Source of the DNA: Candidatus Latescibacterota bacterium
GTDB lineage: Bacteria > Latescibacterota > UBA2968 > UBA8231
Length of the DNA stretch: 64,000 nt
Reading direction: 5' to 3'
Assembly: GCA_965200315.1 (NCBI GenBank)
Contig: OZ241362.1
Coordinates: 1-64,000 of the forward strand
Shown: in pieces, positions 32,902 to 62,458 of the stretch
Layout: each line of letters opens with the position of its first letter
How positions within the stretch are numbered: position 1 is the stretch's first letter
Notes under the pieces: generated by a model
Database searches by the model: none
What the model saw: the letters and a program-made list of their open reading frames with translations, nothing else
Told to the model about the DNA's origin: nothing
Position numbers and translations under genes: made by a program

Positions 32902-32952
32902 ATGCGCACATCGCGACGGGGCCGATCCAGAGCGGCCCGCAAGGCTAATGCC

Positions 32953-34188
32953 ATGTTGGATCTATATGCGGTAAAGACCCAAATAGACAGCATGGTGGCC
33001 GACGAGCGCCGCGTCCAAGAGGACTTTCGCGCCAAGCTCGAATTGGCTTTGGCCGAGTACCAACGCTGGCTGCCCGAGTGGGAGCACTTAGCCCGCAAGA
33101 TCGACGCAAGCCGCACCTCTTGGCTGTTGCCCGGCTTGGCCGAGGGCCTCGGCAGCGGAATCAACGCGCCCGACCGCCCGGACACCATCAGCATCGCCGC
33201 CACGGACGGCTCGCAAATTTTTCCCGACCGCCACGAGATATCAGCCTGTTTTCTGATCAATATCGGCTACATCCTGCTGCACTACGGCACGGGCGAGAAG
33301 CCGCTGATGAGCAGCAAGCCGCGGCTCTATTACCGCGAGGAGGAAATCTACGAGGAATGGGGCGGGGCCCGGGTCTTTATCAATCGCGAGCTCGTCGGCT
33401 TCAAGCGCGGCCTGATGGAGTTCACCGAGTTGGCCGATTTGGCGTTGGCAGCCCACGCCGAGGGGCATCGGACGCTCGCTCTTTCTGACGGTACGCTGAT
33501 TTTGTGGAACTTGGAGGGCAAGCCGCAAGACTTCCGCGCCGCGCACCTAGAGGCCACCCTAGCGGCGATGGACGAGTTGCGCGAGGCACGGGTGCCGGTG
33601 GCTGGGTACATCAGCCAGCCGGGGAGCCAAGAATTGATCAACGCCCTCAAGCTGGGTCTGTGCCCGCTGGCGGCGGCCGACTGCGACCGCTGCCCCTATC
33701 GGGAAGAGAACCAACTCCACTTCAGCCGCGAAGAAATCGACGCGCTGAATGGGGATTTGTGGCAGGGTCGCGGCTTACCGTGCAGTCCCATTGAAGGGCT
33801 GAGCGACGCGGTCTTGGTACGGCGCGTACTGCGCCCCGGGCAGCGTACGCCGCTCTACCGCAGCGCGTCCAAAATCCTCGCCGAGTACGGGCCGCATTAC
33901 ATCTACTACTTCTACCTGCACGTAGGAAATGAGATTGGTCGGGTCGAAGTGCCGGAATGGGTGGCGGCCGACCGCGAGTTGCTCGACTTGGTCCACGCCT
34001 GTTTGTACGACCAAGCCGAAAAGGGCCAAGGCTATCCGGTCGCCTTGGCCGAGGCGCACGAGCGCGCGGTGGTGCGCAGTGCAGACCGCGAGGCATTCTA
34101 TCGCTTTTTGCGCGACACCTTTGTCAAAAACGACCTGCAAACTCGCTTGTCAACCAAGAGCTTCAAGAAACGCTACACTGGTATTTAG
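32953..34188 (+). CDS. nurA: NurA family 5'-3' nuclease
   Basis: AATDGSQ, LSDGTL, GYISQP, RVEVPEWV, GYPVALAEAHERAVV (alternative start 32902). Confidence 0.92.
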   Translation: MLDLYAVKTQIDSMVADERRVQEDFRAKLELALAEYQRWLPEWEHLARKIDASRTSWLLPGLAEGLGSGINAPDRPDTISIAATDGSQIFPDRHEISACFLINIGYILLHYGTGEKPLMSSKPRLYYREEEIYEEWGGARVFINRELVGFKRGLMEFTELADLALAAHAEGHRTLALSDGTLILWNLEGKPQDFRAAHLEATLAAMDELREARVPVAGYISQPGSQELINALKLGLCPLAAADCDRCPYREENQLHFSREEIDALNGDLWQGRGLPCSPIEGLSDAVLVRRVLRPGQRTPLYRSASKILAEYGPHYIYYFYLHVGNEIGRVEVPEWVAADRELLDLVHACLYDQAEKGQGYPVALAEAHERAVVRSADREAFYRFLRDTFVKNDLQTRLSTKSFKKRYTGI

Positions 34189-34200
34189 GGGAGGCCCACT

Positions 34201-34857
34201 GTGGAGACTATCAAAGAGCGCGAGCGTAGCCCGCTGAGCCGCTTTCAGCCCGAGTCGCTGCCGCTGCCCGGCGACGCCGAGTTAGAGCGGACTCACGTGG
34301 GCGAAGTGGTCGAGAGCAGCACTACCGAATTAATCGCCCAAGCGCGTGAACTGCACGGTGCGCCCTCCTTTGGGCAGTTCATCCGCGTGGAAGCCGAGAT
34401 GCCAGTAGTCGGCATTGTGTTCAACGTCTTCACGCACTCCATCGAGCCGAACCGCCGGCCCACGGCCTACGGCAAAACCGAAGAGGAGTTGCGCCTAGAG
34501 CAGCCACAAATTTTCGAGTTGTTGCGCACGGAGTTCCAAGCCCTCGTCATCGGCTACTTAGAAGGCGATGAGGCCGTGCAAATCCTGCCGCCGCAGCCAG
34601 CGCGCATCCACAGCTTTGTGTACTTGTGCTCGGACGAGCAAGTGCGGTCCTTCACCCGCAGCGACGACTATCTTCGCAGCATCCTCAACACCTCCAAAAT
34701 ACCCACTGACGAGCTGGTGATCGCGGTGTTGCGCCACACGGTGCGCGCCCACGCGCACGCGCCGTCCTATCTGGTGCAGATGGGCAAGGAGCTGTCGCGG
34801 CTCCTCAGCGACGATTACGACCGGCTCAGCGCGATTATCCGCCGGGTGGTCAACTAA
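34201..34857 (+). CDS. HAS-barrel domain protein (HerA/NurA-associated)
   Basis: VGEVVESSTTE, PSFGQF, QPQIFELLRTEF, LPPQPARIHSFV; lies between nurA and herA. Confidence 0.85.
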   Translation: METIKERERSPLSRFQPESLPLPGDAELERTHVGEVVESSTTELIAQARELHGAPSFGQFIRVEAEMPVVGIVFNVFTHSIEPNRRPTAYGKTEEELRLEQPQIFELLRTEFQALVIGYLEGDEAVQILPPQPARIHSFVYLCSDEQVRSFTRSDDYLRSILNTSKIPTDELVIAVLRHTVRAHAHAPSYLVQMGKELSRLLSDDYDRLSAIIRRVVN

Positions 34858-34859
34858 CG

Positions 34860-36542
34860 ATGGCAAAATACGCGCACAACGGAGCGCCAGCCGCGGCCGG
34901 TCGCGGAAAGCAGATTGGGGTAATTACCAAAGGCTCGCTAGTTGAGGGGCTGGAGATGAAGCTGGACCCCGAGCAGAATGTCGAGGACATGAAGGCCGGC
35001 AAATTCGTGGTCATCGAAGGCGACAAAAACGATTTCTTCTCTATGGTCACCGACATGCGCCTCGACGCCAACAACCAAGAGATTCTCCTGCATCCGCCGG
35101 GCCAAGAAGACGCGCTCCTACGCGAGGTGCTCGCCGGCACCAGCACGTACAACATCGTCTCGTTGCGGCCCATGTTGATGATGCCCAAGGATGCGGCCGC
35201 CGACGAAGGCCCGCGGCCGGTCAAGGCCATTCCGAGCCACTTCTCCGAGGTCCAAGAGGCCATGGCCGACGACGTGGCCAAGATCTTCGGCTGCGAAGGC
35301 GACGCCGAGGGCCGCTACTTCAGCATCGGCAACCCGCTCGACATGGACACGCAGGTCTGCCTCGACATGATTCGCTTTGCCGAGCGCTCCAACGGCATAT
35401 TCGGCAAGACCGGCACCGGCAAGTCCTTCCTCACGCGGCTGGCGCTGTGCGGGTTGATTTACTACGACAAGGCCGTCAACCTAATTTTCGACATGCACAA
35501 CGAGTACGGGTTCAAGGCCATGAAGGAAAGCGGATCCACTACGACGTTCGTCAAGGGCCTCAAGCAGCTTTTCGGCGGGCGGGTGGCGATCTTTTCCTTA
35601 GACCCGCAATCGACCCGCGCCCGCGGTGTGCCGCCAGACCACGAGGTCTATATCTCCTACGATCAGATCACCGTCGAAGACATTGCCCCGTTGCAAGACG
35701 AGCTCAAGCTCAACCCCACGGCCGTGGAGTCGGCCTACTTGGTGTACGCGATTTACAAGGAGCGCTGGCTGAGCACCCTCTTGAAGTTGGAAGGGCCGGA
35801 TGTGGAGGAATTTGCCCGCGAGATCGGCGCACACGCCGGGTCTTTAGTGGCCCTGCACCGCAAGCTCAAGCGGCTGGAAAACTTCCCCTTTATGGTCTCC
35901 AAGCTCCGCGGTGGCGACGTGGTGGACCGCATCATGGAATACCTCGACAAGGGGATCAACGTGGTGCTGGAGTTCGGGCAGCAGACGAGTATGCTGTGCT
36001 ACTTGCTGGTGGCCAACATCATCGCACGGCGCATCCACGAGATGTACGTCAAAAAGAGCGAACGCTTCTACGCCACCCAGCGCCCGGAAGATCAGCCGCG
36101 TCAGCTCATGATCACCATTGAGGAGGCGCACAAATTCCTCAACCCCATGGCGGCTAAGCAGACCATCTTCGGCACCATTGCCCGCGAGATGCGCAAGTAC
36201 TATGTCTCGCTGTTGGTCGTCGATCAGCGGCCGTCGAGCATTGACGACGAGGTGCTCTCGCAGATCGGTACGCGCATCACGGCCCTGCTTAACGACGAAA
36301 AAGACATCCAAGCGGTGCTCACCGGCGTCAGCGGCACCGACGGGCTGCGCAGTGTGCTGGCCAGCCTCGATTCCAAGCAGCAGGCCCTGATCATCGGCCA
36401 CGCCGTGCCCATGCCGGTGGTGATCAAGACCCGCGACTACGACGTGCAGTTTTACCGCGACATGGGCTGCATGGACTACTTGCCGGCCGCGGAGCGGCGG
36501 GAGAAGACGGAGCGGGGGTCGGCGGCGTTGTTTGGGGAGTAG
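34860..36542 (+). CDS. herA: HerA family DNA translocase/helicase ATPase
   Basis: GKTGTGKS Walker A, IFDMHNEY, IEEAHKFL Walker B, IAREMRKY, DQRPS. Confidence 0.93.
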   Translation: MAKYAHNGAPAAAGRGKQIGVITKGSLVEGLEMKLDPEQNVEDMKAGKFVVIEGDKNDFFSMVTDMRLDANNQEILLHPPGQEDALLREVLAGTSTYNIVSLRPMLMMPKDAAADEGPRPVKAIPSHFSEVQEAMADDVAKIFGCEGDAEGRYFSIGNPLDMDTQVCLDMIRFAERSNGIFGKTGTGKSFLTRLALCGLIYYDKAVNLIFDMHNEYGFKAMKESGSTTTFVKGLKQLFGGRVAIFSLDPQSTRARGVPPDHEVYISYDQITVEDIAPLQDELKLNPTAVESAYLVYAIYKERWLSTLLKLEGPDVEEFAREIGAHAGSLVALHRKLKRLENFPFMVSKLRGGDVVDRIMEYLDKGINVVLEFGQQTSMLCYLLVANIIARRIHEMYVKKSERFYATQRPEDQPRQLMITIEEAHKFLNPMAAKQTIFGTIAREMRKYYVSLLVVDQRPSSIDDEVLSQIGTRITALLNDEKDIQAVLTGVSGTDGLRSVLASLDSKQQALIIGHAVPMPVVIKTRDYDVQFYRDMGCMDYLPAAERREKTERGSAALFGE

Positions 36543-40492: not shown

Positions 40493-40539
40493 ATGCCTAG
40501 GGGGCCGATGAGTAACGTCAATTAGAAAGAAAATGCAAT

Positions 40540-41934
40540 ATGGCAACGTATGATGTGGTAGTTATCGGCGGTGGCCCCGGCGGGTATTCAGCCGCCATTC
40601 GGGCGCGGCAGTTGGGGTTAAAAACCGCGCTGATCGAAGATGCCGAGTTGGGCGGCACCTGTCTCAATTGGGGCTGCATTCCCACTAAGGCTCTGCTCAA
40701 GCAAGCCGAAGTGTATCAGCTTTTCTCGCGCGCCGACGAGTTCGGCTTGCGCGTTGATAAGCCGGCCGTGGATTGGGATGCGGTCATTAGCCGCAGCCGC
40801 GAGGTAGCAGCGCAGTTGTCCAAAGGCGTGGCGTATTTGATGCAGAAGAATCAAGTCGAGGTGTTCGCCGGCCGGGGCCGGTTGACGCCCAACCGCCAAG
40901 TTGCGGTCGAGGGTGCCGAAAGCGAGGTCGTGGCCGAGTTGGACGCCGCGCACGTGGTGCTGGCCACTGGTGCCCGCCCCAAATCCATTCGAGGCGTGGA
41001 ATTCGACGGCGAGCGGATCATCGCCAGCCGCGAGGCCATGATCGTCGCCGAACAGCCCGCTTCTCTCGCCATCATCGGGGCCGGGGCCATTGGCGTAGAA
41101 TTTGCCTATTTCTACCGCGCCTTTGGCAGCCGCGTCTTGCTGTTGGAAGCCCTGCCCCAGGTCTTGCCGCGCGAAGACGAAGAGATCGCCGCGGGGCTAG
41201 CCGAGAGTTTGACACGGCAGGGTATTGAAGTGGTGACCCAAGCCCGGGTCGAGGAGGTCAAAAGACAAAAGCGCGGGGTTGCGTTGCGCTACCGGGTTGG
41301 CGAAGAGCAAAAGACGCGGCGAGTGGAGCGAGTACTGGTTGCCACTGGCGTCCAAGGCAATATCGAGGGGCTGGGGTTAGAAGCGCTGGGCATCCGCACC
41401 CGCGACGGCGCGATTGTGGTTGATGAGCGGATGCAGACCAGTGCCAAGGGCATCTACGCGATTGGCGATGTGGCCGGCCCGCCGCTGTTGGCGCATGCGG
41501 CCGCGCAGGAAGGGATCGCGGCCGTCGAGTTTATAGCTGGCCGCGACCGGCCCACTTTGGACCCGCGCCAAGTGCCCAACTGCATCTATTGCCAGCCGCA
41601 AGTAGCCAGCGTCGGCCTGAGCGAAAGCCAAGCGCGCGAAGCTGGGTACGACGTCAAGGTGGGGCGCTTTCCGTTTGCCGCCAGTGGTAAGGCGCAAGCG
41701 GCCGGGGAGACTGAAGGACTGGTCAAGCTGGTTTTTGATGTGCGTTACGGTGAGTTGTTGGGTGGGGCTATTTTAGGGGCCGAGGCCACGGAATTGATCG
41801 CCGAGCTGACGCTGGCCCTCCGGCTCGAAGCCACATACGAAGAGCTGTTGCTGACCTCTCATGCCCATCCGACGCTGTCCGAGGCCGTGATGGAAGCGGC
41901 CGGGCAGGCGTTTGGTGAGGCTATTAACTATTAA
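40540..41934 (+). CDS. lpdA: Dihydrolipoyl dehydrogenase
   Basis: GGGPGGY, GGTCLNWGCIPTK, GAGAIG, HAHPTLSE. Confidence 0.96.
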   Translation: MATYDVVVIGGGPGGYSAAIRARQLGLKTALIEDAELGGTCLNWGCIPTKALLKQAEVYQLFSRADEFGLRVDKPAVDWDAVISRSREVAAQLSKGVAYLMQKNQVEVFAGRGRLTPNRQVAVEGAESEVVAELDAAHVVLATGARPKSIRGVEFDGERIIASREAMIVAEQPASLAIIGAGAIGVEFAYFYRAFGSRVLLLEALPQVLPREDEEIAAGLAESLTRQGIEVVTQARVEEVKRQKRGVALRYRVGEEQKTRRVERVLVATGVQGNIEGLGLEALGIRTRDGAIVVDERMQTSAKGIYAIGDVAGPPLLAHAAAQEGIAAVEFIAGRDRPTLDPRQVPNCIYCQPQVASVGLSESQAREAGYDVKVGRFPFAASGKAQAAGETEGLVKLVFDVRYGELLGGAILGAEATELIAELTLALRLEATYEELLLTSHAHPTLSEAVMEAAGQAFGEAINY

Positions 41935-41945
41935 GAATTAGGAAT

Positions 41946-43175
41946 TTGGTAGTGGGGAATGTAGAGTCGCATGGCATAGAGCCCCCTGAGTTGCCACCGT
42001 TGGACCAGCTCCTGCCAGCCGAGCCGCTGCTGCTGATGGGGGCTGGGCCGGTGCCGGTGGCGACGGAGATCGCGCGGGCCGGCGGCATGGTCATCAACCA
42101 CTTGGGGCCGACGATGGATCGGCTGGTCGAGCACATCAAGCAACTGGCCGGTTATGCTTTTCAGACGGCCGACAAACACATCTTGGGGATTGGAGGACCG
42201 GCGTCGGCAGCCATGGAGATGGCGATGGGCAATCTGCTTTGGCCGGGCCGTCGCGCCTTGGTGCTGCAAAACGGTTGGTTTAGCGGGCGCTTTGCCGAAA
42301 TGGCGGCTGGTGTGGGGGCGGAGGTTGAGGTGCTGGCCGTGCCGGAAGGGCAAGCGGTCTGCGCCGAGCGCGTGGCCGAGCGCCTCAAGAGTCGGTGCTA
42401 CGACGTGGTGACGATGGTGCAGGGCGAGACCTCGAGCGGCGTCTGCACCGTTGAGCTGCCGGCGATTGCCCGCTTGTGCCGCGAGCACGGGGCGCTGGCA
42501 GTCGTCGATGCGGTCTGCACCTTGAGCACCATGCCGTTAGAAAAGGATGCTTGGGGCGTTGACGTGGTTTTCACCGGCAGCCAGAAGGGCCTGTCGTCGC
42601 TGCCGGGCGTGGCGCTGATTGCCTTTTCCGACGCGGCTTGGGAGCAGGTGCAACAGCATTCCGGCCCTAGGCCGCACTGGTGTTTGGACGCTTTGCGGGC
42701 AGAAAACTTTTGGCAGCACCACCAGTACCACTACACGGCCCCGGTCTCGGGGCTGTTGGCCCTGCACGAGGCCCTGCGGCTGGTCTGCGAGGAGACGCTG
42801 GAGCGCCGCTTTGCGCGGCACCGGCACTCGTCGCTGGCCCTGCAAGCTGGCATTGAGCAGATGGGACTGGTGCTGGCCGCGTCGCGTCGCATTCGCCTCA
42901 ACTCGGTGGTGGCAATCCAAGTACCCGCTGGGGTAGATAACGCTCGGGTGCGCGCCGATATGTCGAGCCGCTTCCACGTCGAAATTTCCGGGGCCTTTGG
43001 CCTCGACATTGTGCGCATTGGCCAGATGGGCGAGCAGTGCCGAGCACCCCATCTATTCCGCGTGTTGCACGCTTTGGGCGGTGCCCTAGCGCACGAAGGG
43101 GCCTGTGTGGATACTAGCGCGGGTATGGCGGCGTTGGAAAGCTATTTGGCGGGCTATGCGGACGATTTGATGTGA
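41946..43175 (+). CDS. Class V PLP aminotransferase (alanine-glyoxylate/serine-pyruvate type)
   Basis: LLMGAGP, VQGETSSGV, VVDAVCT, GSQKGL, RIGQMG. Confidence 0.92.
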   Translation: MVVGNVESHGIEPPELPPLDQLLPAEPLLLMGAGPVPVATEIARAGGMVINHLGPTMDRLVEHIKQLAGYAFQTADKHILGIGGPASAAMEMAMGNLLWPGRRALVLQNGWFSGRFAEMAAGVGAEVEVLAVPEGQAVCAERVAERLKSRCYDVVTMVQGETSSGVCTVELPAIARLCREHGALAVVDAVCTLSTMPLEKDAWGVDVVFTGSQKGLSSLPGVALIAFSDAAWEQVQQHSGPRPHWCLDALRAENFWQHHQYHYTAPVSGLLALHEALRLVCEETLERRFARHRHSSLALQAGIEQMGLVLAASRRIRLNSVVAIQVPAGVDNARVRADMSSRFHVEISGAFGLDIVRIGQMGEQCRAPHLFRVLHALGGALAHEGACVDTSAGMAALESYLAGYADDLM

Positions 43176-43280
43176 GTTTATAGATTCTTGCTCGCCGCTA
43201 TCCGTTTGCGTATTTTTTTAAGTATCTTTGCACTCAAAAGGATATCGTCGTATACAACAGAGAGAACGGAGAGATAAAGC

Positions 43281-46200
43281 ATGAATGCACGGTTGATTCA
43301 GGAGCAAATTCCGCTTGACAGTCAGGTCAAATTTGTTCTACAAGGTGGCGAAGACATATCGGGCAAGTTGGTAGAAATCGGGCGGGAGCATCTCAAAATT
43401 GAAGTCGGAGAAAACCAATCCCCAGTCACGATTCCCATTGATCGGGTTAGCTATTGGCAGCCCCTGACAGATACCTCGCAAAATGGACAAAATGGCAAGC
43501 CAGTTCTGTCTCCTAAAGCCAGCGTCAATTCTCAGCCCAGCAAGCCTTCGGATGAGGTACTTTCCGATGGATTAGCTACTGAGGAAAAGCCCGAGACTAC
43601 TGATCGAGTTGAAAATCTGGGAGACAGTGCGTTATCGGGTGCCAAAATTGAGCTCGAAAAAAAGCTGGTCGAAATTGAAACGCGATTTCAGGCCAAATGC
43701 CAGAGTGCGAAAATCGAGCTTAAAGAACCAGATTTCAAGTTTCCAGAAAAGGAACTAGGTAACAAGTCAAAGAGAGACGCTAGCAAGATATGGAATCGAA
43801 TCCAAAACACGTACCAAAATGCCAAAAGAATTAATGAGTTAAGTAAAAAATTTGGTCGAATTCAGCCGATTATTATCGATCTCAAGAATTTGGCAAATAG
43901 TTTTAGGAGTTCGGCAAGCATAAAACGGCACCTCGCATACTTATATACAGTTTCTGGAAACCAGCAGGACGCGCTCAGGTGGTATCGAGAAACAGCAATC
44001 TATTCACGACATGAGACCGATTGGTATAATCTTGCTGTAGTCGCTCGTGAAGCCGCAAACGAGGAGCTTGCTTGCTATAGTTTGGGTCAGGTTTTCCAGC
44101 GATTGCCGCTTACCAATGAACAGGAGGCTTGGTATTTGTATGTACATCTATTGCTCAAATTCAATGGTCATAAAGAGTTGGACTTGCTCTATCAAGCTGA
44201 AATTTCGCTCCTGTCGGAAACGGCGGTTTATCTTCTCAAAATGGCTGGCCAAGAAACGACTGCAAGAGAAATCTTGAGAAAATCCATAACTGGTGAGATT
44301 TCAATTTCTTCTATTCAGAAGACTCTGAACGCTCTTGACTGGCAGCCGACAGAAGGTTATCAGAGGGTTGCCAAAAAGATTGAAGATTTGATGAAGGCAC
44401 CGCAGGATACTGAAGACCAACCACAACAAGATCATAGCCCTAAAGACAAATCCTATAGACGCTCTAGTTTTATACATCGTCAAAAGAAAACGGGATATTT
44501 TGAAGAATCTCAAGATACAAATAAGACGATTCAGGACTGGTACGAACTTGCTGAAAGAGCGGCGAACGATGGAGATTATGGAAAAGCGATTTCGCACATA
44601 AGACAGGTTCTTGGCATTAATAAGAACTACCCAAATGCACTGGAAAACTACGAGAAATGGCGCGAATACGAACGAGTAAGAGGTGTTCCAAAGGGAGCAA
44701 ACCCCTTCGCTCGTGCCAAACGTGCTCAGTTAGTTGAGAAGGATTTGGAAAAGGCTGAGAATTTCTTTCGCCAAGCTATCACACAAAATGACAATTTGGA
44801 ATCCGCCGTAAACGATTTAGCAGCACTTCTTTCGCAACTTGACCGCTGCCAAGATGCTGTTAAAGTTATTGAACAGAATCGTTCGCGAATTCAAAATAAG
44901 AAATCATTAGAAAACGTGCTGACTAATATTTACATAAAAGCTGATATGCATGTCGAGGCGATTGCACTTTTAAAAAAACAACTCAAACTTGCGTCATCAA
45001 AAGAAAAAAAGGATCAAATTAAGTGGCAGATTGCGATTTCTTATGTGAAAAAAGAAGAGTATGTAAAACCTGAGGAACTATTCAGAGATATTCTTAAAAG
45101 TCAACCAGATCGTGTTTCTGCTAAACACAACCTTGCTTTATGTCTGTCAAGGCAGGGACGCTATGGCGAAGCTGAAGTACTACTCAATCAAATTTCAGCC
45201 ATTTCATCAGATGAGAAAACCGCCGAACTGCTTGCTGCCGTTCTGCGAGCTAAACAGACTGGCGGAAGAGAACTTCTTGATGAGGTTGTGATTGAGACAG
45301 AGCTTTCAGATTATTCAAGTGGTCAAATCAGTGCATTTACTCAGTTTTTTTTAGATCGCTGTGATTTCACAGGTGTACCACCCGAGCGAGTTCAATCAGA
45401 GAGATTCTGGCGTTCGGATATAGTTACCTTGGAACACCGAGCAACACAGTCGAAATCATATAGACCATCTGAGCGTGCAAGGTATTACCTTTCTGCTGCC
45501 AAAATCATCTCAATTTTGGAAGATGAAGCCCCCGACAGATTTTATAGAGATCTATGTAGAAGTTTCGCCTCCAGAGGAGACGATACAATAATTAATAATG
45601 GACACTTGGACACAGCTCGAGAATGGTATGCCGAAGCACTTAAAGTTTATGATGGAGATAGAGAGCGAAATAATAATATTAGAGACGAACTGGATGCCGT
45701 TAATGCTCTCGTCAGATTTCTTTATGCACGGTTGGGACGTACTCATATACCAATGCCGCCTCATACCCCTTCTATTGATAATACAATAAACGAGGTTATA
45801 TCCCTTGCTGATTCCCAAGGGATATTTGATGACATCAGGTATCTCGTTTTCCGTAGCAAATATGCGGCAAATCGTCTGTTAATACGTCTATACGACCAGC
45901 AGGATTTACGGAAAAAGGCTCTACAGTACCTCAGAGACAAAGATGTTTATAAGACTGATTCCGATCTTTCAAGGGGTAATTTTATATCCCTGTGGGATCA
46001 ATTGATCGATAGACTTGCCAGTGACACACGAAATCTTAACAACGATTTACGTCACTTCAATAACTTTCAATTGACAACAGCTTGGCTAGAACATGCTATT
46101 GAGCAGTCCAAGAGTATCGTCGATAAACTAAGATTTGACCTCGATCAAGAACGAATTCGACATCTACAGGAAATGTTGGAACAAGTCGTAGAATTGTGTA

Positions 46201-47936
46201 AACAAAACCAATTTGAAGTGCAAGAACGTCTGTGTCAGCGGATTGACCATTCTTGTCGTGACTTGCTATCAGAGGTTGAAAAGAGTCCCACCCGAATATC
46301 TGTGGAGATGCTTTATCCAGTTGTTGAGAACATCCAGACAGAAATCAGTAAATATCTCAAAGAACTTTATGCGAAGGCAAAGCCCGAACTCACTTTGAGC
46401 ATGCCTGTCGAAGATTACTCTGCTCACCAAGCAGATATTGAGATAGAGATTGTTATCGAAAATAAATTAGGGTGCAGTCCTGCCGAAGGGCTCGAACTTA
46501 TTATCGAACCAGATAATGCATTATTTACTCTTGTCCAGTCCAAAATAGAATTGAACGAATCTCTGTTAGGTGGGAGACCGAGCAATTTTACAGTTAAACT
46601 ACAACTAACAAACCAAGCGTTACAGTCGGAAACTTTTTCGTTGTCAGCTCATGTAAGGTATCGAACTTCGGCCAAAGCAACGGAGAGAACGGATACCACG
46701 AACTTCACAATACGGCTTTATTCAGTAGATGCTTTTGAGACGATTATCAATCCGTATAATGAAGGTCCTGTTGTTAGTGATCCAAAGATGTTTTATGGAC
46801 GCGATCGAATGATTGAAAATATAGCAAATTCTCTGAGAGAATCTCATACGCAAAATAAATGTGTTGTAATATATGGTCAGAAGCGAGCAGGCAAATCTTC
46901 AATAATGTATCACTTAGAAAGGAAGTTGAATGAACGAAATATCTTGATTTTGGACTTGGGCAATATTGGAGGACACCTAGATGAAAATTCTGATGTACCG
47001 TTTTCGTATCGAATTTTTTGGTCTATTTTGAGTTTACTAGAAGGAGCTATAGAAGATAGAGTAGATACCGGTGCCAGTTCGTTGGGGATTTCTTTTCCAA
47101 GTGAAACAGATTTCTATAAACATCCAACCCCCTTGATCTTATTCAAAGAGGTGTTCGCTAAATATCAATATCTTGCATCCAAGCAGGCAGATTGGCGAGA
47201 TATACAATTGGTACTTTTCATTGACGAATTTTCTTATATCTACGGACAAATCCTCTCGGGTCACATCTCCGAATCATTCATGAAAAATTGGAAGGCTTTG
47301 ATGCAAGCCAACTATTTTAATGCCGTACTTGTCGGTCAAGATGTGATGGAGCGATTTATAGAGAACTTTCAGAACGAATTCGGAATCGCTCAGACGGAGA
47401 GAGTCACATATCTCGACAAGGAAGACGCGGAAAAGCTAATTGATGAACCCATTCGCATTGGTGGATTGCAAGGCGAAAGCCGTTACCGTGAACGGCATGC
47501 TATTGATAGAATTATTGAACTCACCGCCGGCAGTCCATTTTACATTCAGATGCTCTGCAACCGCTTAGTTGAACATCTAAACCTAAAGCGAGCAGTTTAC
47601 ATCACGTATTCTTACGTCGAGCAGGTAAAGAACGAACTTATGAGCGGGCGGAATGCTCTGGGAAAGAGCAATTTTGAGAACTTGTATAATTCGGGAGAAA
47701 ACAACCAAAGCAAAGATGACGATGTGCTAAACATCTTACAGGCCATTGCAGTGCATAGCCAAACGGGACCATGCAATCGGAGCCACATTGATTGCAAAAC
47801 ACAGTTACCAGTTGACCACCTGCTCAATGAATTGGTTACGCGAGATGTCATAGATCGGAAGGGAAGTTATTACACCATCAAGGTTGGTCTTTTCAAAGAA
47901 TGGCTTCTCATTCATAGGGCAGGAGAAACTCGATGA
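43281..47936 (+). CDS. Large Sm/Hfq-like + TPR + STAND-type AAA NTPase protein
   Basis: N-terminal VKFVLQGGEDISGKLVEIGREHLKIE..VTIPIDRV; multiple TPR-like helices; FYGR, GQKRAGKS (46875), FIDEF, TAGSPF (GxP); AT-rich. Confidence 0.85.
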   Translation: MNARLIQEQIPLDSQVKFVLQGGEDISGKLVEIGREHLKIEVGENQSPVTIPIDRVSYWQPLTDTSQNGQNGKPVLSPKASVNSQPSKPSDEVLSDGLATEEKPETTDRVENLGDSALSGAKIELEKKLVEIETRFQAKCQSAKIELKEPDFKFPEKELGNKSKRDASKIWNRIQNTYQNAKRINELSKKFGRIQPIIIDLKNLANSFRSSASIKRHLAYLYTVSGNQQDALRWYRETAIYSRHETDWYNLAVVAREAANEELACYSLGQVFQRLPLTNEQEAWYLYVHLLLKFNGHKELDLLYQAEISLLSETAVYLLKMAGQETTAREILRKSITGEISISSIQKTLNALDWQPTEGYQRVAKKIEDLMKAPQDTEDQPQQDHSPKDKSYRRSSFIHRQKKTGYFEESQDTNKTIQDWYELAERAANDGDYGKAISHIRQVLGINKNYPNALENYEKWREYERVRGVPKGANPFARAKRAQLVEKDLEKAENFFRQAITQNDNLESAVNDLAALLSQLDRCQDAVKVIEQNRSRIQNKKSLENVLTNIYIKADMHVEAIALLKKQLKLASSKEKKDQIKWQIAISYVKKEEYVKPEELFRDILKSQPDRVSAKHNLALCLSRQGRYGEAEVLLNQISAISSDEKTAELLAAVLRAKQTGGRELLDEVVIETELSDYSSGQISAFTQFFLDRCDFTGVPPERVQSERFWRSDIVTLEHRATQSKSYRPSERARYYLSAAKIISILEDEAPDRFYRDLCRSFASRGDDTIINNGHLDTAREWYAEALKVYDGDRERNNNIRDELDAVNALVRFLYARLGRTHIPMPPHTPSIDNTINEVISLADSQGIFDDIRYLVFRSKYAANRLLIRLYDQQDLRKKALQYLRDKDVYKTDSDLSRGNFISLWDQLIDRLASDTRNLNNDLRHFNNFQLTTAWLEHAIEQSKSIVDKLRFDLDQERIRHLQEMLEQVVELCKQNQFEVQERLCQRIDHSCRDLLSEVEKSPTRISVEMLYPVVENIQTEISKYLKELYAKAKPELTLSMPVEDYSAHQADIEIEIVIENKLGCSPAEGLELIIEPDNALFTLVQSKIELNESLLGGRPSNFTVKLQLTNQALQSETFSLSAHVRYRTSAKATERTDTTNFTIRLYSVDAFETIINPYNEGPVVSDPKMFYGRDRMIENIANSLRESHTQNKCVVIYGQKRAGKSSIMYHLERKLNERNILILDLGNIGGHLDENSDVPFSYRIFWSILSLLEGAIEDRVDTGASSLGISFPSETDFYKHPTPLILFKEVFAKYQYLASKQADWRDIQLVLFIDEFSYIYGQILSGHISESFMKNWKALMQANYFNAVLVGQDVMERFIENFQNEFGIAQTERVTYLDKEDAEKLIDEPIRIGGLQGESRYRERHAIDRIIELTAGSPFYIQMLCNRLVEHLNLKRAVYITYSYVEQVKNELMSGRNALGKSNFENLYNSGENNQSKDDDVLNILQAIAVHSQTGPCNRSHIDCKTQLPVDHLLNELVTRDVIDRKGSYYTIKVGLFKEWLLIHRAGETR

Positions 47937-49477
47937 CGCCATTTGAAAATCCGTTTGCAGATTACGGCGGGATTGTTCACGGCGACCGTTTCATCGGGCG
48001 GCAAGAGAGCTTGAAGGTTATCGACAGTCGGCTCATCCAGCCGAAAGAGCCGGCCAATCTGGCAATTATCGGTCAGCCACGCAGCGGGAAAAGCAGCCTT
48101 GTTTATCAAGCACTCATTGAGCGTAAAGATCAACTCATAAAGGATCGTTTCATTCCAATATGGGTCAATCTTTCGACGTATGAAGAGTCGAGAGCCTTCT
48201 TTCAGTCCTTGGTCCCTGTGTGTCTAGAGGAGCTTGAGGACTTAGATCTGCTCGATACGGGAATTCAGCGAGCAGCAGACCGAGCCGGCGACAGCCAACT
48301 GTCATGGAATGAAAGGTATCGCAAGATTCAACGGTTCTTCAAGAAAGTCCGGGAGACCGGATATCGCATACTCCTCATATTAGATGAATTTGATAGTGCG
48401 CGGTATCTTTTTAAGAACAGCGTTTCCGACTTTCAAAAATTGCGGGAACTATCTTATGCACCAGAATTGGGCATTACCTTGATTACAACTTCTCGGCGGA
48501 GCATTAAGGCAATTGAATTACAGGCGGGTGATATTTCTACGCTGAGTGAGACTTTTCGGAGGCACTATTTAGCGATGTTTGATGCTCAAGAGCTACAAGT
48601 ATTTTTTGATCGGCTTGCCGCGGCAGGTGTAAACGCCTGCGAGACATTGAAGAGCGATATACTGTCCTATTGCGGCGGCTATCCTTTTCTACTGGATATG
48701 CTCGGCTGTGAGATTATTGAAATGTGTCAAAAGGAGCAGGAGATTGACGTCGAAAAGGCTGTTACCCAAATTGATCAATCCTTATTTGGTCACTACGATC
48801 ATATTGTCGATCTCTCAAAAGAAGATGGAAACTTAGATGGATTAATCCAAATTCTTTTTGGCCCCGTTATTGACGTCAAGCAAGAAACCGTCAATGAATT
48901 TCTTGGCTACGGACTAATTCGAGAATCCGATGATGGAACGTACGTAGGATTTTCCAAACACTTCCATGACTTTCTCCGACTAATTGAGCGCAAAAGTAGT
49001 GGTGGCGACCTATGGCCGATATGGAGGGATACTGAGCGAGTGCTGCGACAGTTTATTTCGGCCACCATGTTAGAGAAGTATGGTGAGCGGTGGGTGGAAC
49101 AGCTTGAAAAGCAGCATAAGGGAATCCGAGCCATTTTTGAGGAATGCCGAAACTCACAAAAAACAGACGAACGCAAATTTGGCAACCGCGCCTCTCAAAA
49201 TCTGATTGATTTCACTTATCCCGCTGATCTGTTTAGCATTATCTCCTCAGAGTGGATTACTTTTAAGGATACCTTCGGTAAGGACAAACGCTACTGGAAT
49301 GAACGCTCAGAGTTGTTATCTAAAGTTAGAACTCCATTAGCCCACAACCGCGACGAAGTTCTCCAAGAATATGAACGGCAAATCGCCGAAGGGTACTGTA
49401 ATGAAATCCTGACGACGCTTGAAGAAAAAATTCCGCTGGCGACTCGTGCGCCTACCAAAAATGAGGAGAACCAGTGA
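47933..49477 (+). CDS. STAND-type AAA NTPase with C-terminal Swt1-like HEPN domain
   Basis: FIGRQE, GQPRSGKS (48071), ILDEFD, CGGYPF; TERVLRQFI...YG..W...RTPLAH (RxxxxH at 49328-49345); ATGA overlap with the upstream gene. Confidence 0.85.
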   Translation: MTPFENPFADYGGIVHGDRFIGRQESLKVIDSRLIQPKEPANLAIIGQPRSGKSSLVYQALIERKDQLIKDRFIPIWVNLSTYEESRAFFQSLVPVCLEELEDLDLLDTGIQRAADRAGDSQLSWNERYRKIQRFFKKVRETGYRILLILDEFDSARYLFKNSVSDFQKLRELSYAPELGITLITTSRRSIKAIELQAGDISTLSETFRRHYLAMFDAQELQVFFDRLAAAGVNACETLKSDILSYCGGYPFLLDMLGCEIIEMCQKEQEIDVEKAVTQIDQSLFGHYDHIVDLSKEDGNLDGLIQILFGPVIDVKQETVNEFLGYGLIRESDDGTYVGFSKHFHDFLRLIERKSSGGDLWPIWRDTERVLRQFISATMLEKYGERWVEQLEKQHKGIRAIFEECRNSQKTDERKFGNRASQNLIDFTYPADLFSIISSEWITFKDTFGKDKRYWNERSELLSKVRTPLAHNRDEVLQEYERQIAEGYCNEILTTLEEKIPLATRAPTKNEENQ

Positions 49478-50577
49478 GCGGCCCACTAGCGTATCCCACG
49501 TATAAGAGCCTCGGCGTACGCCCCCTGATCAACTGCCAAGGGACCTACACCATCATCAGCGGCTCGTTGATTTTGCCCGCAGTGCGGCAGGCCATGGTCG
49601 AAGCCTCCAAACAATACGTCCACCTCGACGAGCTGATGGAGGCCGTTGGAGCGCGCATCGGCGAGCTGATGCAGTGCGAGTGGGGGCTTGTTACCAATGG
49701 CTGCGCTGCGGCGTTGTGCCAAGTTACGGCTGCTTGCGTGGCGGGCACCGATCCCGAGAAAATGGCGCGATTGCCCGACACTACGGACATGAAAAACCAA
49801 GTCATCGTCCAGCCTAGCCACCGCCACGGGTACGATCACGCCGTGCGCATGGTCGGCGTCGAAATGGTCGAGGTCGCCACGCGCACCGAACTCGATGCGG
49901 CCTTGTCGGATCGTACGGCCATGCTGTTGGTGTTTGGCGATGCGGCCGAGCGTGGCCAGATCTCGGTGGCGGATATGGCGGCGGCTGGGCGGCGACGCGG
50001 TGTACCGACGTTGGTCGATGCCGCGGCCGAGCGGCCGGATGTGCCCAACTGGTATTTGGAGCAAGGAGCCGATGCAGTGGCCTATTCGGGCGGCAAGTGC
50101 CTGCGCGGGCCGCAGGCATCGGGCTTGGTCTTGGGCCGCAAGGACTTGTTGCAGGCAGCTTTCCTCAACGGGGCACCGCACCATGCGCTGGGGAGGCCGA
50201 TGAAAGCGGGCAAGGAAGAAATCATGGGGCTGCTGGCAGCAGTGGAGCAGTGGATAAGGCGCGACCACGCGGCCGAATGGCGGGAGTGGGAGCAGCGGCT
50301 CGCGGTCATCGCCGATGCAGTGGAAAAGTTCCCCTCGGTGGCGACGCAGGTTAGCCAGCCCGGGCGCTCGAATGTTGCGCCGAACTTGGCGGTGCGTTGG
50401 GATCGGGATCGGCTGGCAATCAGCGGCCACGAGCTAGCGCGTCAGCTATCGGTTGGCCAACCGCGCATCGAAGTGCCAGCACACGACAGCGGCTTTGCAA
50501 TCAATCCCTATATGATGGAGCCGGGCGAGGAAGACATTGTGGCGCGGCGGGTGAGCGAGGTTTTAGCTGCGGTGTAA
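49474..50577 (+). CDS. SelA-like / DgaE-family PLP-dependent enzyme
   Basis: LGVRPLINCQGT, VTNGCAAAL, VDAAAE, YSGGKCLRGPQASG, RPMKAGKEE. Confidence 0.9.
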   Translation: MSGPLAYPTYKSLGVRPLINCQGTYTIISGSLILPAVRQAMVEASKQYVHLDELMEAVGARIGELMQCEWGLVTNGCAAALCQVTAACVAGTDPEKMARLPDTTDMKNQVIVQPSHRHGYDHAVRMVGVEMVEVATRTELDAALSDRTAMLLVFGDAAERGQISVADMAAAGRRRGVPTLVDAAAERPDVPNWYLEQGADAVAYSGGKCLRGPQASGLVLGRKDLLQAAFLNGAPHHALGRPMKAGKEEIMGLLAAVEQWIRRDHAAEWREWEQRLAVIADAVEKFPSVATQVSQPGRSNVAPNLAVRWDRDRLAISGHELARQLSVGQPRIEVPAHDSGFAINPYMMEPGEEDIVARRVSEVLAAV

Positions 50578-50736
50578 GCGCCCAATCGCCAGACTCAATC
50601 AAGGCACAAACACTTTCAGGACGATATTAAGTAAAGCCAAAATCGCCGTCAGGTCTTAAAACTACCCTTGACTTCAGCTACATCTGCCTTCGTAGCCAAG
50701 TGCTCATAGGCTCCTTCAAGCCGAGGTTGCGCTACT

Positions 50737-52782
50737 TCAGTTGGGCCGCTCGCCTCGGCGCAAGGCTACGGACAGCGGCTGGGTCCCGGCCTTGTTGGGC
50801 TTTGACACCTTGCCAGTGCGAGGATCCACACTGTAGATCTGCACATCCTCAGGCACGTCAAAATCCTTTTCCGCCCGCTCCTCGTTTACCGCAATCATAA
50901 AATCCGTCCATATAGGCGCGGCACCGTTGCCGCCGGCAATCTGCTCCCCAAGCGTATCCACCAGCTTGTGGGTGCGGCGGTCGTCGAATCCCACCCAGAC
51001 GCTGGTGATTAAGTCCGGTGTGAAGCCAGTAAACCAAGCGTCGGTATTGTCGTTGGTCGTGCCGGTCTTGCCGGCGGCCGGCCGCGTAAAGCCGAGCTTG
51101 CGCACTTGGCGGCCGGTGCCGCGGTCCACGTCCACGGTCTGGCGCAAGAGGTGGACCATCTGCGCGGCGAGGTCGGGCGCGATAGCTTGGCGGATCTGCG
51201 GCTGGTGGGTAAAAATCTGCTGGCCGTCGGCATCGACGATCCGCTCTATCAAGGTCGGCTCAACCTGCAAGCCATAGTTGGCGAAAGTGCCGTACGCCGC
51301 CGCCATTTCCAATACCGAGACTTCGGCGACGCCCAAGGCAATGCTCCTATAGGCCTGTATGGGCCCCGCAAAACCCAAGCGGTGGGCCATCTCGACAACG
51401 CGCTTCGGACCAACGCGCTCGGAGATTTGTACGGTCGTGGAGTTGGCCGAGCGGACCAAGGCCCACGCCGCAGTCGTCCGCCCCAAGTAGCGGCCGCCGT
51501 AGTTGCGCGGTTGCCACTTTTTCCCGTTGACGATATAGGTGCGCCGCTGGTCGTCAAAGATGGTTACGGGGCTTATTTTGCCGGCTTCCAAAGCGGCTAG
51601 GTAAGCGATCGGCTTAAAGCCCGAGCCGGGCTGGCGACGGGCGGTGAGGGCCCGGTTGTAGTAGCTGATGAAAATATCCCGGCCGCCAACCATGGCCAGC
51701 ACGTTCCCGGTAGTGGACAGGCACACCAACGCGCCTTGGACGTAGGCCGGGCGCTCTTCCATCCCGGCTTCCGAATAGGGCTTAAACCCTAGCCGCTCGT
51801 CCAATTCGGCCATCCCCTTAGCCACGGCCGCTTCGGCCGCTTCTTGCATTGCAACGTCCAAGGTGGTATAGACCTTCAAGCTCCCGTGGTGCAGGGCCGA
51901 AGGCCCCCACCGGCGGACGACTTCCTCGTTGACGGCTGCGGCCCAATAGGGCATGGGGTTACGGGGTGGATAGACGGGATTGACGAGGTCGTCGGTGTGG
52001 AGGGCGGCGTATTCGCGGCGCGTTTCTCGGTCGAGAAAGCCGCTGGCGACCATGCGGTCGAGTACGTGTTGCAACCGCTCGGTGGCCTGTTGGGGATACC
52101 GCAGGGGATTGTACGCGGTCGGAGCGTTGATTTGGCCGATGAGCATGGCAGCGCGAGGCAGGCTCAGCGAGTCTGGAGTTGTGTTGAAGAAGGTGGCCGC
52201 GGCGGCGTGAATGCCATAGGCATTGGTGCCGTAGAAAACCTCGTTGAGGTACAGCTCTAAGAGGCGACCTTTGTACGCCGGGTAGCCGGCGGCATGGGTG
52301 CCGGGGTACGAGGTGGCAAAAGACCGCTCTAGCTGCACGGCGAGAAGTGCTTCTGAAAGCTTGCGCGTAAAGGTCTTTTGCGGCGAAAAAAACAGGCGCT
52401 TGACGAGCTGTTGGGTCAAGGTACTGCCGCCGCGAATGATGCTGCCGGCTAGCAGGTTGTCGCGCACCGCGCCGACAATGGACAGCAGGTCAAGGCCGCG
52501 GTGGTGGTAAAAGTGCGCGTCCTCAGTGGCGATGAGCGCGTTGGGCACATGGGGGCTGATATGTTCGAGGGGCACCCATTGGCGACTCTGATTGAAGGTG
52601 TAGAAGAGCTCGCCCGAGGCCGCGTAGATTTCCGTGCCAGGGCGAATGCCCAAGTCGTGAGGATCGGTGGGCAGGCTGGGTAAGTTGGGGGTCATGCGCC
52701 AGACGACGTACCCTACGCCTAGCCCGGTTGCCAAGATGAGGAACAGGGCCAAGACCGCGCCGATAAGCAGCGAGCGTCTCAT
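50737..52782 (-). CDS. Class A penicillin-binding protein (PBP1A family)
   Basis: ATEDAHFYHHRG, GGSTLTQQLVK, ELYLN, RQPGSGFKP (SxxK), SAN, GKTGTT. Confidence 0.95.
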   Translation of the reverse strand: MRRSLLIGAVLALFLILATGLGVGYVVWRMTPNLPSLPTDPHDLGIRPGTEIYAASGELFYTFNQSRQWVPLEHISPHVPNALIATEDAHFYHHRGLDLLSIVGAVRDNLLAGSIIRGGSTLTQQLVKRLFFSPQKTFTRKLSEALLAVQLERSFATSYPGTHAAGYPAYKGRLLELYLNEVFYGTNAYGIHAAAATFFNTTPDSLSLPRAAMLIGQINAPTAYNPLRYPQQATERLQHVLDRMVASGFLDRETRREYAALHTDDLVNPVYPPRNPMPYWAAAVNEEVVRRWGPSALHHGSLKVYTTLDVAMQEAAEAAVAKGMAELDERLGFKPYSEAGMEERPAYVQGALVCLSTTGNVLAMVGGRDIFISYYNRALTARRQPGSGFKPIAYLAALEAGKISPVTIFDDQRRTYIVNGKKWQPRNYGGRYLGRTTAAWALVRSANSTTVQISERVGPKRVVEMAHRLGFAGPIQAYRSIALGVAEVSVLEMAAAYGTFANYGLQVEPTLIERIVDADGQQIFTHQPQIRQAIAPDLAAQMVHLLRQTVDVDRGTGRQVRKLGFTRPAAGKTGTTNDNTDAWFTGFTPDLITSVWVGFDDRRTHKLVDTLGEQIAGGNGAAPIWTDFMIAVNEERAEKDFDVPEDVQIYSVDPRTGKVSKPNKAGTQPLSVALRRGERPN

Positions 52783-53663
52783 CGCGCCAGCCCAAGGCGT
52801 TGTTGCACGGTCTTGGCCGCCAGCACGAGCGTGGTGGCCTGGTCGCCCGGCACGAGCGCGTACGCGGCGAATTGGTCCCCACTGCGGGTCAGGCGCAGCT
52901 CAAAGCCGTCGGCGCTGTCCCAGGCCTCGAGTAATCGCTCGGTCTCGCTCTGGCGCAGCGAATCGGCCCGGGCTTGTACGATCTGGTCTAAAGCCGCTTT
53001 GATGATCGGCCCGGCATCGCTTTGCGTGGAATCGGGTTCGGCGTACAAAAGTGGTGCTAGGTGCTCGCGCCAGTAAGCCATGTCTTCCTCTTTCATCTTC
53101 AGAAAAGTCCAAGCCTCAGACTCGTCTTTTGCCAGCAGCCGCTTGTGGAGCTGGTGGAAGAGTGCGCCGTCCTCTAAGGCCACTTGCGTCTTGACGAGAG
53201 CGTGGAGATACGAGTGGTCGTCGGGTATGATGGCTTGGGTTAGCAAGTAGCGGCCCTGCTCGTAGATCTGTAGGGAATAGGCCAGCTCGCGCCGGGTCTC
53301 TGGATTGAGGGGATCGGGTTGGAGGGCCGTGTCGCGCCGTGTGACCGCAAAGAATACCGCGTGCGCGCCGTGGTACTGGAGCTGGTAGTGGTTTTGCAAA
53401 ATCGGCAGCGGGGCTTGACTCGGCTCTAGGGGCGCTTCGGCCAGCGAGTCGGATAGGGCCCTGCGGCTCTGCCGACTGGCGAGAATGCCCTCCCACAGCG
53501 CACCTCTTGGCTCGCGCTGTGAGTTTTGCTGCATCAGGTATTGACCGATGTAGCCCGCCACCAATTGGGTTTGATATTCGAGCAAGAACAGCAGGCAAGC
53601 CGCGCCGAAGGGCACCGACGCACACAGGGCAATGCGACCGAGAATACGAAAAAAAGAACGCAT
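52779..53663 (-). CDS. Hypothetical membrane-anchored protein
   Basis: N-terminal hydrophobic helix; ATGA overlap with the PBP gene. Confidence 0.75.
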   Translation of the reverse strand: MRSFFRILGRIALCASVPFGAACLLFLLEYQTQLVAGYIGQYLMQQNSQREPRGALWEGILASRQSRRALSDSLAEAPLEPSQAPLPILQNHYQLQYHGAHAVFFAVTRRDTALQPDPLNPETRRELAYSLQIYEQGRYLLTQAIIPDDHSYLHALVKTQVALEDGALFHQLHKRLLAKDESEAWTFLKMKEEDMAYWREHLAPLLYAEPDSTQSDAGPIIKAALDQIVQARADSLRQSETERLLEAWDSADGFELRLTRSGDQFAAYALVPGDQATTLVLAAKTVQQRLGLAR

Positions 53664-62373: not shown

Positions 62374-62458
62374 AGACGCAGATTGATTAGGGGGAAGAGA
62401 AATGATACATTGGGGCCAGAAAGCGGGCAAGGCATCATCAACCAAGGAGACATGCGAT

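Follow-up and report, generated by a model that had tools for sequence, protein, structure and literature searches.

The window analyzed here, the first 64,000 nucleotides of contig OZ241362.1 (assembly GCA_965200315.1) from a Candidatus Latescibacterota bacterium, contains a 6.2-kb AT-rich island formed by two open reading frames (ORFs). ORF1 (43281-47936, forward strand) encodes a putative sensor STAND protein of 1551 aa, and ORF2 (47933-49477, forward strand) a putative executor of 514 aa, in which a STAND-type nucleoside triphosphatase (NTPase) is joined to a Swt1-like HEPN domain. Both reading frames are intact and they overlap by an ATGA at 47933-47936, with an AGGAG 7 nt upstream. The G+C (GC) content of 500-nt windows is 0.38-0.48 in the island and 0.60-0.67 alongside, and the value for the whole pair is 0.427, compared to 0.600 in the remaining window. 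On the left, a 105-nt AT-rich spacer (43176-43280) separates the stop codon of an aminotransferase-like gene from the ORF1 start. On the right, the ORF2 stop codon overlaps the GTG start of another aminotransferase-like gene (GTGA, 49474-49477, forward strand), and orthologues of this downstream gene align from residue 1-2 of the GTG-start reading. According to Pfam, both flanking genes (41946-43175 and 49474-50577) are class-V aminotransferase-like.

An earlier interpretation of the same DNA, made from the letters and their translations (hereafter, the sequence-only reading), had described two intact ORFs with an ATGA overlap, set as an AT-rich island between GC-rich housekeeping genes. Its coordinates proved exact, and both the composition and the nature of the flanking genes agree with the description. 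It had also assigned TPRs, a β-rich segment and a C-terminal STAND NTPase to ORF1, and a second STAND-type NTPase together with a Swt1-like HEPN domain to ORF2. All of the motifs it listed (FYGR, GQKRAGKS, FIDEF and TAGSPF in ORF1; FIGR, GQPRSGKS, ILDEFD, CGGYPF and RTPLAH in ORF2) are present in the translations, and each of the domain assignments was recovered in our searches.

Domain organization of ORF1 and ORF2

In ORF2, an NTPase is followed by a putative helical/winged-helix part and then by a Swt1-like HEPN domain. The NTPase (residues 17-260, 47981-48712, forward strand) has Walker A at residues 47-54, Walker B at 151-154 and a GxP motif at 247-252. Residues 20-256 match ATPase_2 above the cut-off (35.6 vs 33.2 bits), whereas the matches to nSTAND1 (23.5 bits) and NB-ARC (20.9 bits) are below it. 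The HEPN domain (residues 368-482, 49034-49378, forward strand) was detected as HEPN_Swt1 (PF18731) over residues 370-479, with 34.8 bits against a cut-off of 27.5, and its RxxxxH motif (R466-H471) lies at 49328-49345. The conservation of this motif, singled out by the sequence-only reading, is complete in both of our alignments of ORF2 homologues: R466 and H471 are invariant in 27/27 and 17/17 sequences, and N472 is conserved. Across the 27 homologues, which come from several phyla, G47, R50, G52-S55 and D151-D154 are invariant as well. HEPN domains need to pair in order to form an active site, and the ORF2 domain is a predicted ribonuclease (RNase). A Foldseek search with the ORF2 model returned Orc1/Cdc6, 2qen (a representative of PF01637), NRC2 and Apaf-1 as the best matches (E 1.6e-3 to 5e-2, TM ~0.2), which are consistent with an ORC-like/STAND ATPase without being decisive. 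A comparison of the ORF2 profile with PDB sequences gave nothing useful (best E 0.56).

ORF1 homologues are ~1500-1680 aa long and share the same architecture (186 matches at E<=0.001 among the candidates scored). We mapped the domains of ORF1, all on the forward strand, using an alignment of 17 long homologues (A2) together with analyses of separate segments. Residues 1-62 (43281-43466), kept in every deletion variant, may form an Sm/SH3-like β-barrel. The C-terminal SH3 domain of RimP was matched in 10 of the 17 homologues (best E 4.3e-5), DUF2642 in eight and LSM in three, and the closest PDB match of the barrel profile was an Lsm protein (E 0.017), followed by the BirA SH3 domain and Hfq. 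Taken as they are, these matches lend weak support to the proposed fold. The best score for the N-terminal 64 residues in the ESM Atlas was 0.88, to unnamed clusters, and is to be read as a lead only. A variable linker follows the barrel and leads to a conserved helical, TPR-like block (residues 118-360, 43632-44360), defined by conserved columns in A2 and including a weak Pfam match to BTAD at residues 186-241.

Further along the chain, residues ~385-410 (44433-44510) are the remnant of a cold-shock domain. This domain is present in the other 16 of the 17 aligned long homologues; in the one from locus L002 it is matched by both Pfam CSD (1.6e-5) and PADLOC CSD_V (2.6e-9). The remnant is followed by a TPR array (residues 415-660, 44523-45260; Pfam TPR_2, TPR_19 and TPR_14), with 34.3 bits for TPR_2 and 33.7 bits for TPR_19 over residues 420-656. 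An AlphaFold2 (AF2) model of residues 662-1166 (predicted local distance difference test, pLDDT, 88.2; predicted template modelling score, pTM, 0.82) revealed an all-helical region (residues 662-1033, 45264-46379) and then an immunoglobulin (Ig)/macroglobulin-like β-sandwich (residues ~1037-1147, 46389-46721). With the middle-region model searched whole, Foldseek and VIA-align gave only generic helical-repeat matches for the helical region, for which no new fold is claimed, and the profile comparison of the middle region with PDB sequences gave nothing below E 0.078. The confidently modelled sandwich, which corresponds to the β-rich segment of the sequence-only reading, resembles HAP2 domain 3, complement MG domains and transglutaminase barrels (VIA-align Z 10-11, root-mean-square deviation 2.3-2.8 over ~100 residues).

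The C-terminal part of ORF1 (residues 1166-1551, 46776-47933) is a STAND-type NTPase with a putative helical/winged-helix extension. Residues 1166-1423 match AAA_16 (33.6 bits, cut-off 32.6) and nSTAND1 (28.2 bits, cut-off 27.1), and the columns of Walker A (1199-1206), Walker B (D1315/E1316) and GxP (1415-1420) are invariant. Since ORF1 ends with the NTPase and the helical part, its sensor-like region is N-terminal to the NTPase. As for the sensor itself, the sequence-only reading was right about the TPRs but missed the Sm/SH3-like barrel and the cold-shock domain typical of the family, both of which point to RNA as much as to a phage protein as the ligand.

The NTPases of ORF1 and ORF2 can be aligned with each other (hhalign probability 92.7%, E 4.2e-7, 255 columns, 20% identity). 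The alignment spans a shared 'NP[FY]..Y' lead-in, Walker A, Walker B and GxP, and the GxP-like TAGSPF of ORF1 and CGGYPF of ORF2 are both conserved and aligned with each other. By this comparison the two NTPase modules are distant paralogues.

Conservation, distribution and genomic context

The ORF2 family is large: of 8000 candidates that were scored, at least 620 proteins have E<=0.001. Beyond the close relatives, those among the 120 listed are 52-59% identical to ORF2 over 95-99% of the query, one 349-aa fragment excepted. An exhaustive search with the ORF2 profile produced 3137, 1153 and 544 representatives of clusters at 50% identity at E<=1e-3, 1e-10 and 1e-30, respectively.

How regularly is ORF2 accompanied by ORF1? 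Our genome scan, with one genome per species, gave 30 loci, from which a distant one (L030, 28% identity) was set aside; another (L004) has no upstream room. In 27 of the 28 assessable loci, belonging to Latescibacterota, Chloroflexota, cyanobacteria, Bacillota, Spirochaeta and others, the region immediately upstream of ORF2 contained sequence homologous to ORF1 by tblastn. The 27 upstream forms comprise 22 that are long or cut by the contig end (in L027, split in two ORFs), four short in-frame forms and one remnant. The exception, L028, has a 530-aa AAA_35-type ATPase upstream of an ORF2 homologue that is 52% identical. At the same locus (L028:2230-11277), the product encoded two genes downstream (1380 aa) has matches of the Pycsar-cyclase-like and TPR types. 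In the metagenome sample, ORF1 was upstream in 13 of 17 loci, of which L043 is apparently the same contig as L015. The four remaining cases are two distant ORF2 relatives (L049, 35% identity; L051, 32%), one locus without room and one kinase-only match. Thus, the co-occurrence implied by the sequence-only reading is borne out in both samples.

These counts bear directly on the possibility that the two genes are independent single-gene STAND proteins that merely happen to be neighbours in a variable region. Each protein does possess a complete NTPase of its own, and L028, L049 and L051 have ORF2-like genes with no ORF1 homologue upstream. However, in 27 of 28 genome loci and in 13 metagenome loci the order is kept, across phyla and among neighbours that are otherwise unrelated. 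Moreover, start and stop codons overlap, a fused form exists (P0289, below) and the C-terminal module of ORF1 has been co-inherited with ORF2 (below), while the exceptions involve either a different partner ATPase or distant ORF2 relatives. We therefore consider mere adjacency highly improbable.

All-versus-all clustering of the 310 ORFs from the 30 genome loci showed that only the ORF1 and ORF2 families occur in more than four loci, and therefore that there is no third component. A third conserved gene, such as the PhyH-like downstream ORF, was considered and rejected, as its recurrence is limited to four Latescibacterota loci that are syntenic. ORF1 and ORF2 are thus a conserved, self-contained two-gene module.

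We then looked at how this module is distributed. Its GC content is below that of the flanks in all 27 loci measured, and by at least 0.05 in 24 of them. ORF2 is present in nine of 41 related genomes, the window's own included. Among 24 other genomes of the same genus it occurs in three, once intact, once split and once as a 66-aa remnant (G019). Four same-genus genomes have an empty site, with the flanking aminotransferase-like genes ~25-95 nt apart and nothing between them. The island is an insertion with a patchy distribution, probably acquired horizontally. No meaningful direct or inverted repeats were found flanking or within it, so no mobility mechanism is proposed; neither an integrase nor any other mobility signature flanks it. 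The scan for promoter and terminator consensus sequences did not exceed shuffled controls (12 vs 9.7±3.0 and 11 vs 10.2±3.5). Decay takes several forms: ORF2 is split in L007/G008 and broken in L023, and in L001 an intact 508-aa ORF2 stands beside a 105-aa remnant of ORF1, with a similar arrangement in G007.

To characterize the surroundings of the pair, we compared 100 flanking ORFs from 22 loci with PADLOC models (E<=1e-5). The matches include mad2/mad3/mad8, Cas1, AriA-like, NsnB-like, PLD-helicase, NERD+UvrD and type II methyltransferase. Seven of the ten largest neighbours have matches at this threshold, including a mad3/mad8 protein, a PLD-helicase (781 bits), TIR-HEAT and an LmuA-like protein. 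Directly upstream of the pair in L006 (1942-5169, reverse strand) lies a gene for a 1076-aa protein that matches two components of methylation-associated defence, mad3 (E 1.8e-91) and mad8. One flanking ORF matches the PADLOC entry 'TPR repeats containing protein fused to cold shock-like domain (OB-fold)' with E 6.3e-87; ORF1 homologues do not. The sequence-only reading looked to defence islands for the context of the pair. Some loci indeed adjoin defence genes, including a BrxH-like one, but the association was counted without a background rate, several loci have housekeeping flanks and many have no recognizable defence neighbour, which makes it suggestive only.

The same observations are relevant to a non-immune role, in which the pair would act in host RNA surveillance, stress or regulation, with the Sm-like and cold-shock domains of ORF1 picking RNAs for ORF2 to process. 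The RNA-binding-type domains of ORF1 fit such a role. So do the housekeeping flanks and the same-strand, overlapping arrangement with neighbours in the window, the many loci lacking a recognizable defence neighbour, and the statement by Lee et al. (2026, PMC13581612) that STAND clades with and without a defence role are interspersed. On the other hand, presence in only three of 24 genomes, empty sites, foreign GC content, swaps between HEPN, kinase and ATPase (below) and frequent decay make up the pattern of an accessory conflict gene, and we regard a non-immune function as unlikely. The island is most likely a horizontally acquired, self-contained two-gene conflict module with an anti-phage role of the abortive-infection type.

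Modular evolution and a predicted ORF1–ORF2 contact

The short in-frame forms of ORF1 are 503 aa (L005), 523 aa (L021, with 38.2 bits to nSTAND1), 656 aa (L022) and 546 aa (L023) long. They lack the sequence from residue ~72/87/89/92 to residue ~1026/1123/1138/1151. The end points differ, yet the barrel and the NTPase are kept in frame in all four, against a neutral expectation for such deletions of about one in three in frame. These are four independent deletions of the whole TPR/helical region, and the products may represent a natural minimal form of the system.

Modularity is also evident from locus L019. Over ORF1 residues 1-1050 its sequence resembles that of the window at 56-73%, as closely as L002 does, but from residue ~1050 through all of ORF2 the figure drops to 36-71% (for the most part 49-62%), roughly what distant homologues show. 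From this drop it follows that, in this one lineage, the Ig-like and NTPase part of ORF1 and the entire ORF2 were inherited together, as a unit distinct from the sensor region. Compared with the window, L019, L020 and L021 show a recombination break near ORF1 residue 1050: the sensor part resembles the window's, and the Ig-NTPase part and ORF2 are no closer to it than homologues from other phyla.

The same two parts are joined in P0289. No longer, fused form of ORF2 came out of a word-based search at E<=1e-10; the exhaustive search then recovered this 1108-aa protein, in which an ORF2-like N-terminus is fused to a region corresponding to ORF1 residues 927-1545 (40% identity, E 1e-148).

We also modeled the complex, with the barrel and the ORF1 NTPase as chains and ORF2 as their partner. 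The scores of 0.44, 0.53 and 0.55 fall in a range (<=0.60) in which predictions are more often wrong than right; the 0.53 compares with 0.25 for the best control, and the score fell to 0.00 once the ORF1 NTPase chain was replaced. In the calibration of the mark applied to these scores, 58 of 80 solved complexes attained it, as did 2 of 110 mismatched pairs; our predictions differ from that calibration in using their own alignments and a three-chain layout. The sequence-only reading envisaged a hetero-oligomerizing pair. For the underlying heteromeric contact between ORF1 and ORF2 the modeling offers weak support, to which the P0289 fusion and the recombination pattern add indirect, sequence-level backing.

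A contact of this kind could equally mean inhibition. In that case ORF2 would be an autonomous STAND-HEPN toxin, and ORF1 a guard or antitoxin-like protein that restrains it and releases it once ORF1 itself has been titrated, degraded or modified in the course of infection. The ATGA coupling, the strict co-occurrence and the weak predicted contact through the ORF1 NTPase chain fit this arrangement no less well. However, the retention of ORF2 beside a remnant of ORF1 in L001 and G007 is hard to square with an essential antitoxin. In addition, the invariant Walker A and Walker B motifs of ORF1 would be needless in a passive inhibitor, for which 1551 aa with large ligand-binding arrays would also be atypical. 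We consider it improbable that ORF1 is primarily an inhibitor.

The effector part of ORF2 turned out to be exchangeable. Of ten long representatives with an ORF2-type NTPase, four carry a Ser/Thr protein kinase (P0264, P0294, P0387 and P0388), two have Swt1-HEPN within a longer protein, one has an AAA_21/AAA_15 ATPase, one is the P0289 fusion and two are without a recognized extra domain. The kinase sits after the HEPN domain or replaces it. Scanning metagenomes with the kinase variant gave no match, and a subsequent alignment-based scan gave one kinase-bearing locus, L048. Directly upstream there lies sequence for the C-terminal residues 1381-1548 of an ORF1 homologue (52% identity).

Known systems and a proposed mechanism

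PADLOC v2.0.0 has no system model that matches either protein; the matches found were of the HEPN domain to PDC-M34B and of the cold-shock domain to CSD_V. ORF2 residues 368-482 match PDC-M34B with E 1e-10, as do the corresponding regions of its homologues, and so the Swt1-type HEPN domain is shared with component B of PDC-M34. However, the match covers the HEPN domain without the NTPase, and ORF1 matches no M34 model at E<=0.1. The combination of a STAND NTPase, a TPR-type sensor and a nucleic-acid-degrading effector is reminiscent of Avs/AVAST, for which recognition followed by oligomerization is expected (PMC13581612, in its available text). In contrast to Avs, a single chain in the order effector-NTPase-sensor, here two chains each have an NTPase, the ORF1 sensor being N-terminal and the ORF2 effector C-terminal to it; the inverted order proposed by the sequence-only reading is borne out by the domain positions. 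Avs models were not among the PADLOC matches at E<=0.1 for ORF1 or ORF2. Unlike in bNACHT proteins, NACHT (PF05729) was not among the Pfam matches at E<=0.1 for either protein. A nucleotidyltransferase domain, as in HEPN-MNT toxin-antitoxin systems, was not found in ORF1 or the flanks.

A parallel in logic is provided by eukaryotic paired nucleotide-binding leucine-rich repeat receptors (NLRs). In NAIP/NLRC4 and in plant sensor NLRs with NRC helper NLRs, one NLR binds the ligand but has no executing domain and cooperates with a second NLR that has one, and the two NTPases are paralogous (PMC9975940, available text). The parallel is one of logic only. The NTPases described here are of another clade, ATPase_2/nSTAND1-like and not NACHT or NB-ARC above the cut-off.

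As to novelty, the sequence-only reading, which proposed a new system, is upheld by the lack of a PADLOC v2.0.0 system match, but the HEPN survey of Anantharaman et al. (2013, PMC3710099) already lists, in the part available, an association of Swt1-HEPN with STAND ATPase, TPR and S1. The HEPN family is the same, and STAND ATPase, TPR and an S1/cold-shock-type OB fold recur in the family of our pair (PMC3710099). In the available text of the survey this is one line of a table, which does not include the two NTPase chains, their order, the Sm/SH3-like or Ig-like domains, the short forms, the kinase variants or a mechanism (PMC3710099). Among our matches is P0209, a 1568-aa ORF1 homologue from Desulfobacca acetoxidans with the UniRef name 'Cold-shock protein DNA-binding'. 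The Desac_ locus tags of the survey presumably denote this species. With a Desulfobacca acetoxidans homologue among the matches, the ORF1/ORF2 family was very probably already seen in 2013 as a one-line entry, as far as the accessible part of the survey allows one to say. In their available text, Lee et al. (2026, PMC13581612) describe 589 STAND clades, 198 of them defence-associated, and the NTPases of ORF1 and ORF2 may be among the 589. In the published full texts searched, no paper on the pair or on paired prokaryotic STANDs was found. In the available text of Kaur et al. (2020, PMC7159879), HEPN appears nowhere but among the references. A preprint on CRISPR-linked genes, the Adt1 preprint and the CoCoNuT paper were set aside because they deal with other proteins.

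Taking domain architecture and evolution together, we lean, by a modest measure, towards an NLR-like sensor/executor STAND system, in which trigger-bound ORF1 engages ORF2, ORF2 oligomerizes and its HEPN domains cut RNA. The N-terminal region of ORF1, comprising the Sm/SH3-like barrel, the TPR arrays, the helical region and, in most relatives, the cold-shock domain, would bind the trigger. One candidate for the trigger is a phage protein; in view of the RNA-binding-type domains, another is RNA or a ribonucleoprotein (RNP). Binding would free the C-terminal Ig-like, NTPase and winged-helix module of ORF1. The freed module would in turn engage the paralogous NTPase of ORF2 and seed ATP-dependent oligomerization, with the signal presumably passing from ORF1 to ORF2. 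Oligomers of ORF2 would bring Swt1-like HEPN domains together as active RNase sites, and these would cut cellular or phage RNA and thereby stop growth.

Several observations weigh against this reading. RNase activity, ATPase activity and protection against phages are all predictions from sequence. The AF2 model of ORF2 is mediocre (pLDDT 68.5, with residues 1-56 below 50). P0289 is a single cluster representative in which the position of the HEPN histidine reads T, and the fusion could be an assembly artefact. In the window the flanks of the pair are housekeeping genes, and no relative was detected in viral contigs or PLSDB plasmids, so that carriage on mobile elements does not back a defence role. 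Contigs of three metatranscriptome runs, and of a run labelled sponge metagenome from which the assembly may derive, contain 88-99% of the sampled words of window positions 40500-52800. In the three metatranscriptome libraries, all from one study, contigs span the entire island with depths similar to those of the flanks, but contigs from these RNA libraries also bridge convergent genes, DNA carry-over is possible and the coverage is therefore not evidence of transcription.

The state of the island also calls for caution. The sequence-only reading held that it shows no decay, which is true of the ORFs and their catalytic motifs but not of the cold-shock domain, of which, according to the alignment, ~40 residues have been lost in frame from the window's ORF1. 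Nor does it extend to the sister genomes, whose copies at the same site (L001, L007, L023 and G019) are decaying through large deletions and broken ORF2. Because sister copies decay, selection in this lineage is weak or episodic. The cold-shock loss is seen in three of ten close relatives (P0001, P0124 and P0137). Since these proteins are otherwise full-length and yet only 67-76% identical over the region searched, the domain was lost in a sublineage that has persisted.

All in all, the sequence-only reading was largely right in outline and incomplete. We regard ORF1 and ORF2 as a credible, uncharacterized candidate NLR-like pair with a predicted function. STAND/NLR-like proteins occupy a central place in bacterial immunity and, as far as the available literature goes, characterized ones combine effector, NTPase and sensor in single chains. 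A widespread module with sensing and execution split over two paralogous NTPases could offer a simple bacterial model of sensor-helper NLR communication, a subject of continuing work in plants and animals. The Sm-like and cold-shock domains make a STAND receptor that reads RNA a testable possibility, while the natural short forms and the HEPN/kinase swaps are ready-made variants for dissection. A bolder and more doubtful proposal is that this is the first prokaryotic sensor/helper NLR pair, in which an RNA- or RNP-sensing STAND protein uses its Ig-NTPase module to nucleate a paralogous executor with an interchangeable effector (HEPN RNase, Ser/Thr kinase or OLD-like ATPase). If true, bacteria would have evolved paired-NLR logic separately from animals and plants and coupled it to the recognition of RNA rather than of protein patterns.

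Finally, some other genes of the window and their relatives may be mentioned. In five same-genus genomes searched, the aminotransferase-like gene downstream of ORF2 has 3-5 paralogous matches per genome. Farther out from the island are genes for a pyridine-nucleotide disulphide oxidoreductase, a class-A penicillin-binding protein and a CCA-adding-type enzyme. At 32902-36542 (forward strand), NurA (137 bits) adjoins a HerA-type gene (DUF87 and HAS barrel); such a nuclease/ATPase pair can have a role in repair or defence. At 59774-61012, a gene for a DUF790 protein (415 bits) adjoins a 482-aa ORF on the same strand (61018-62466).

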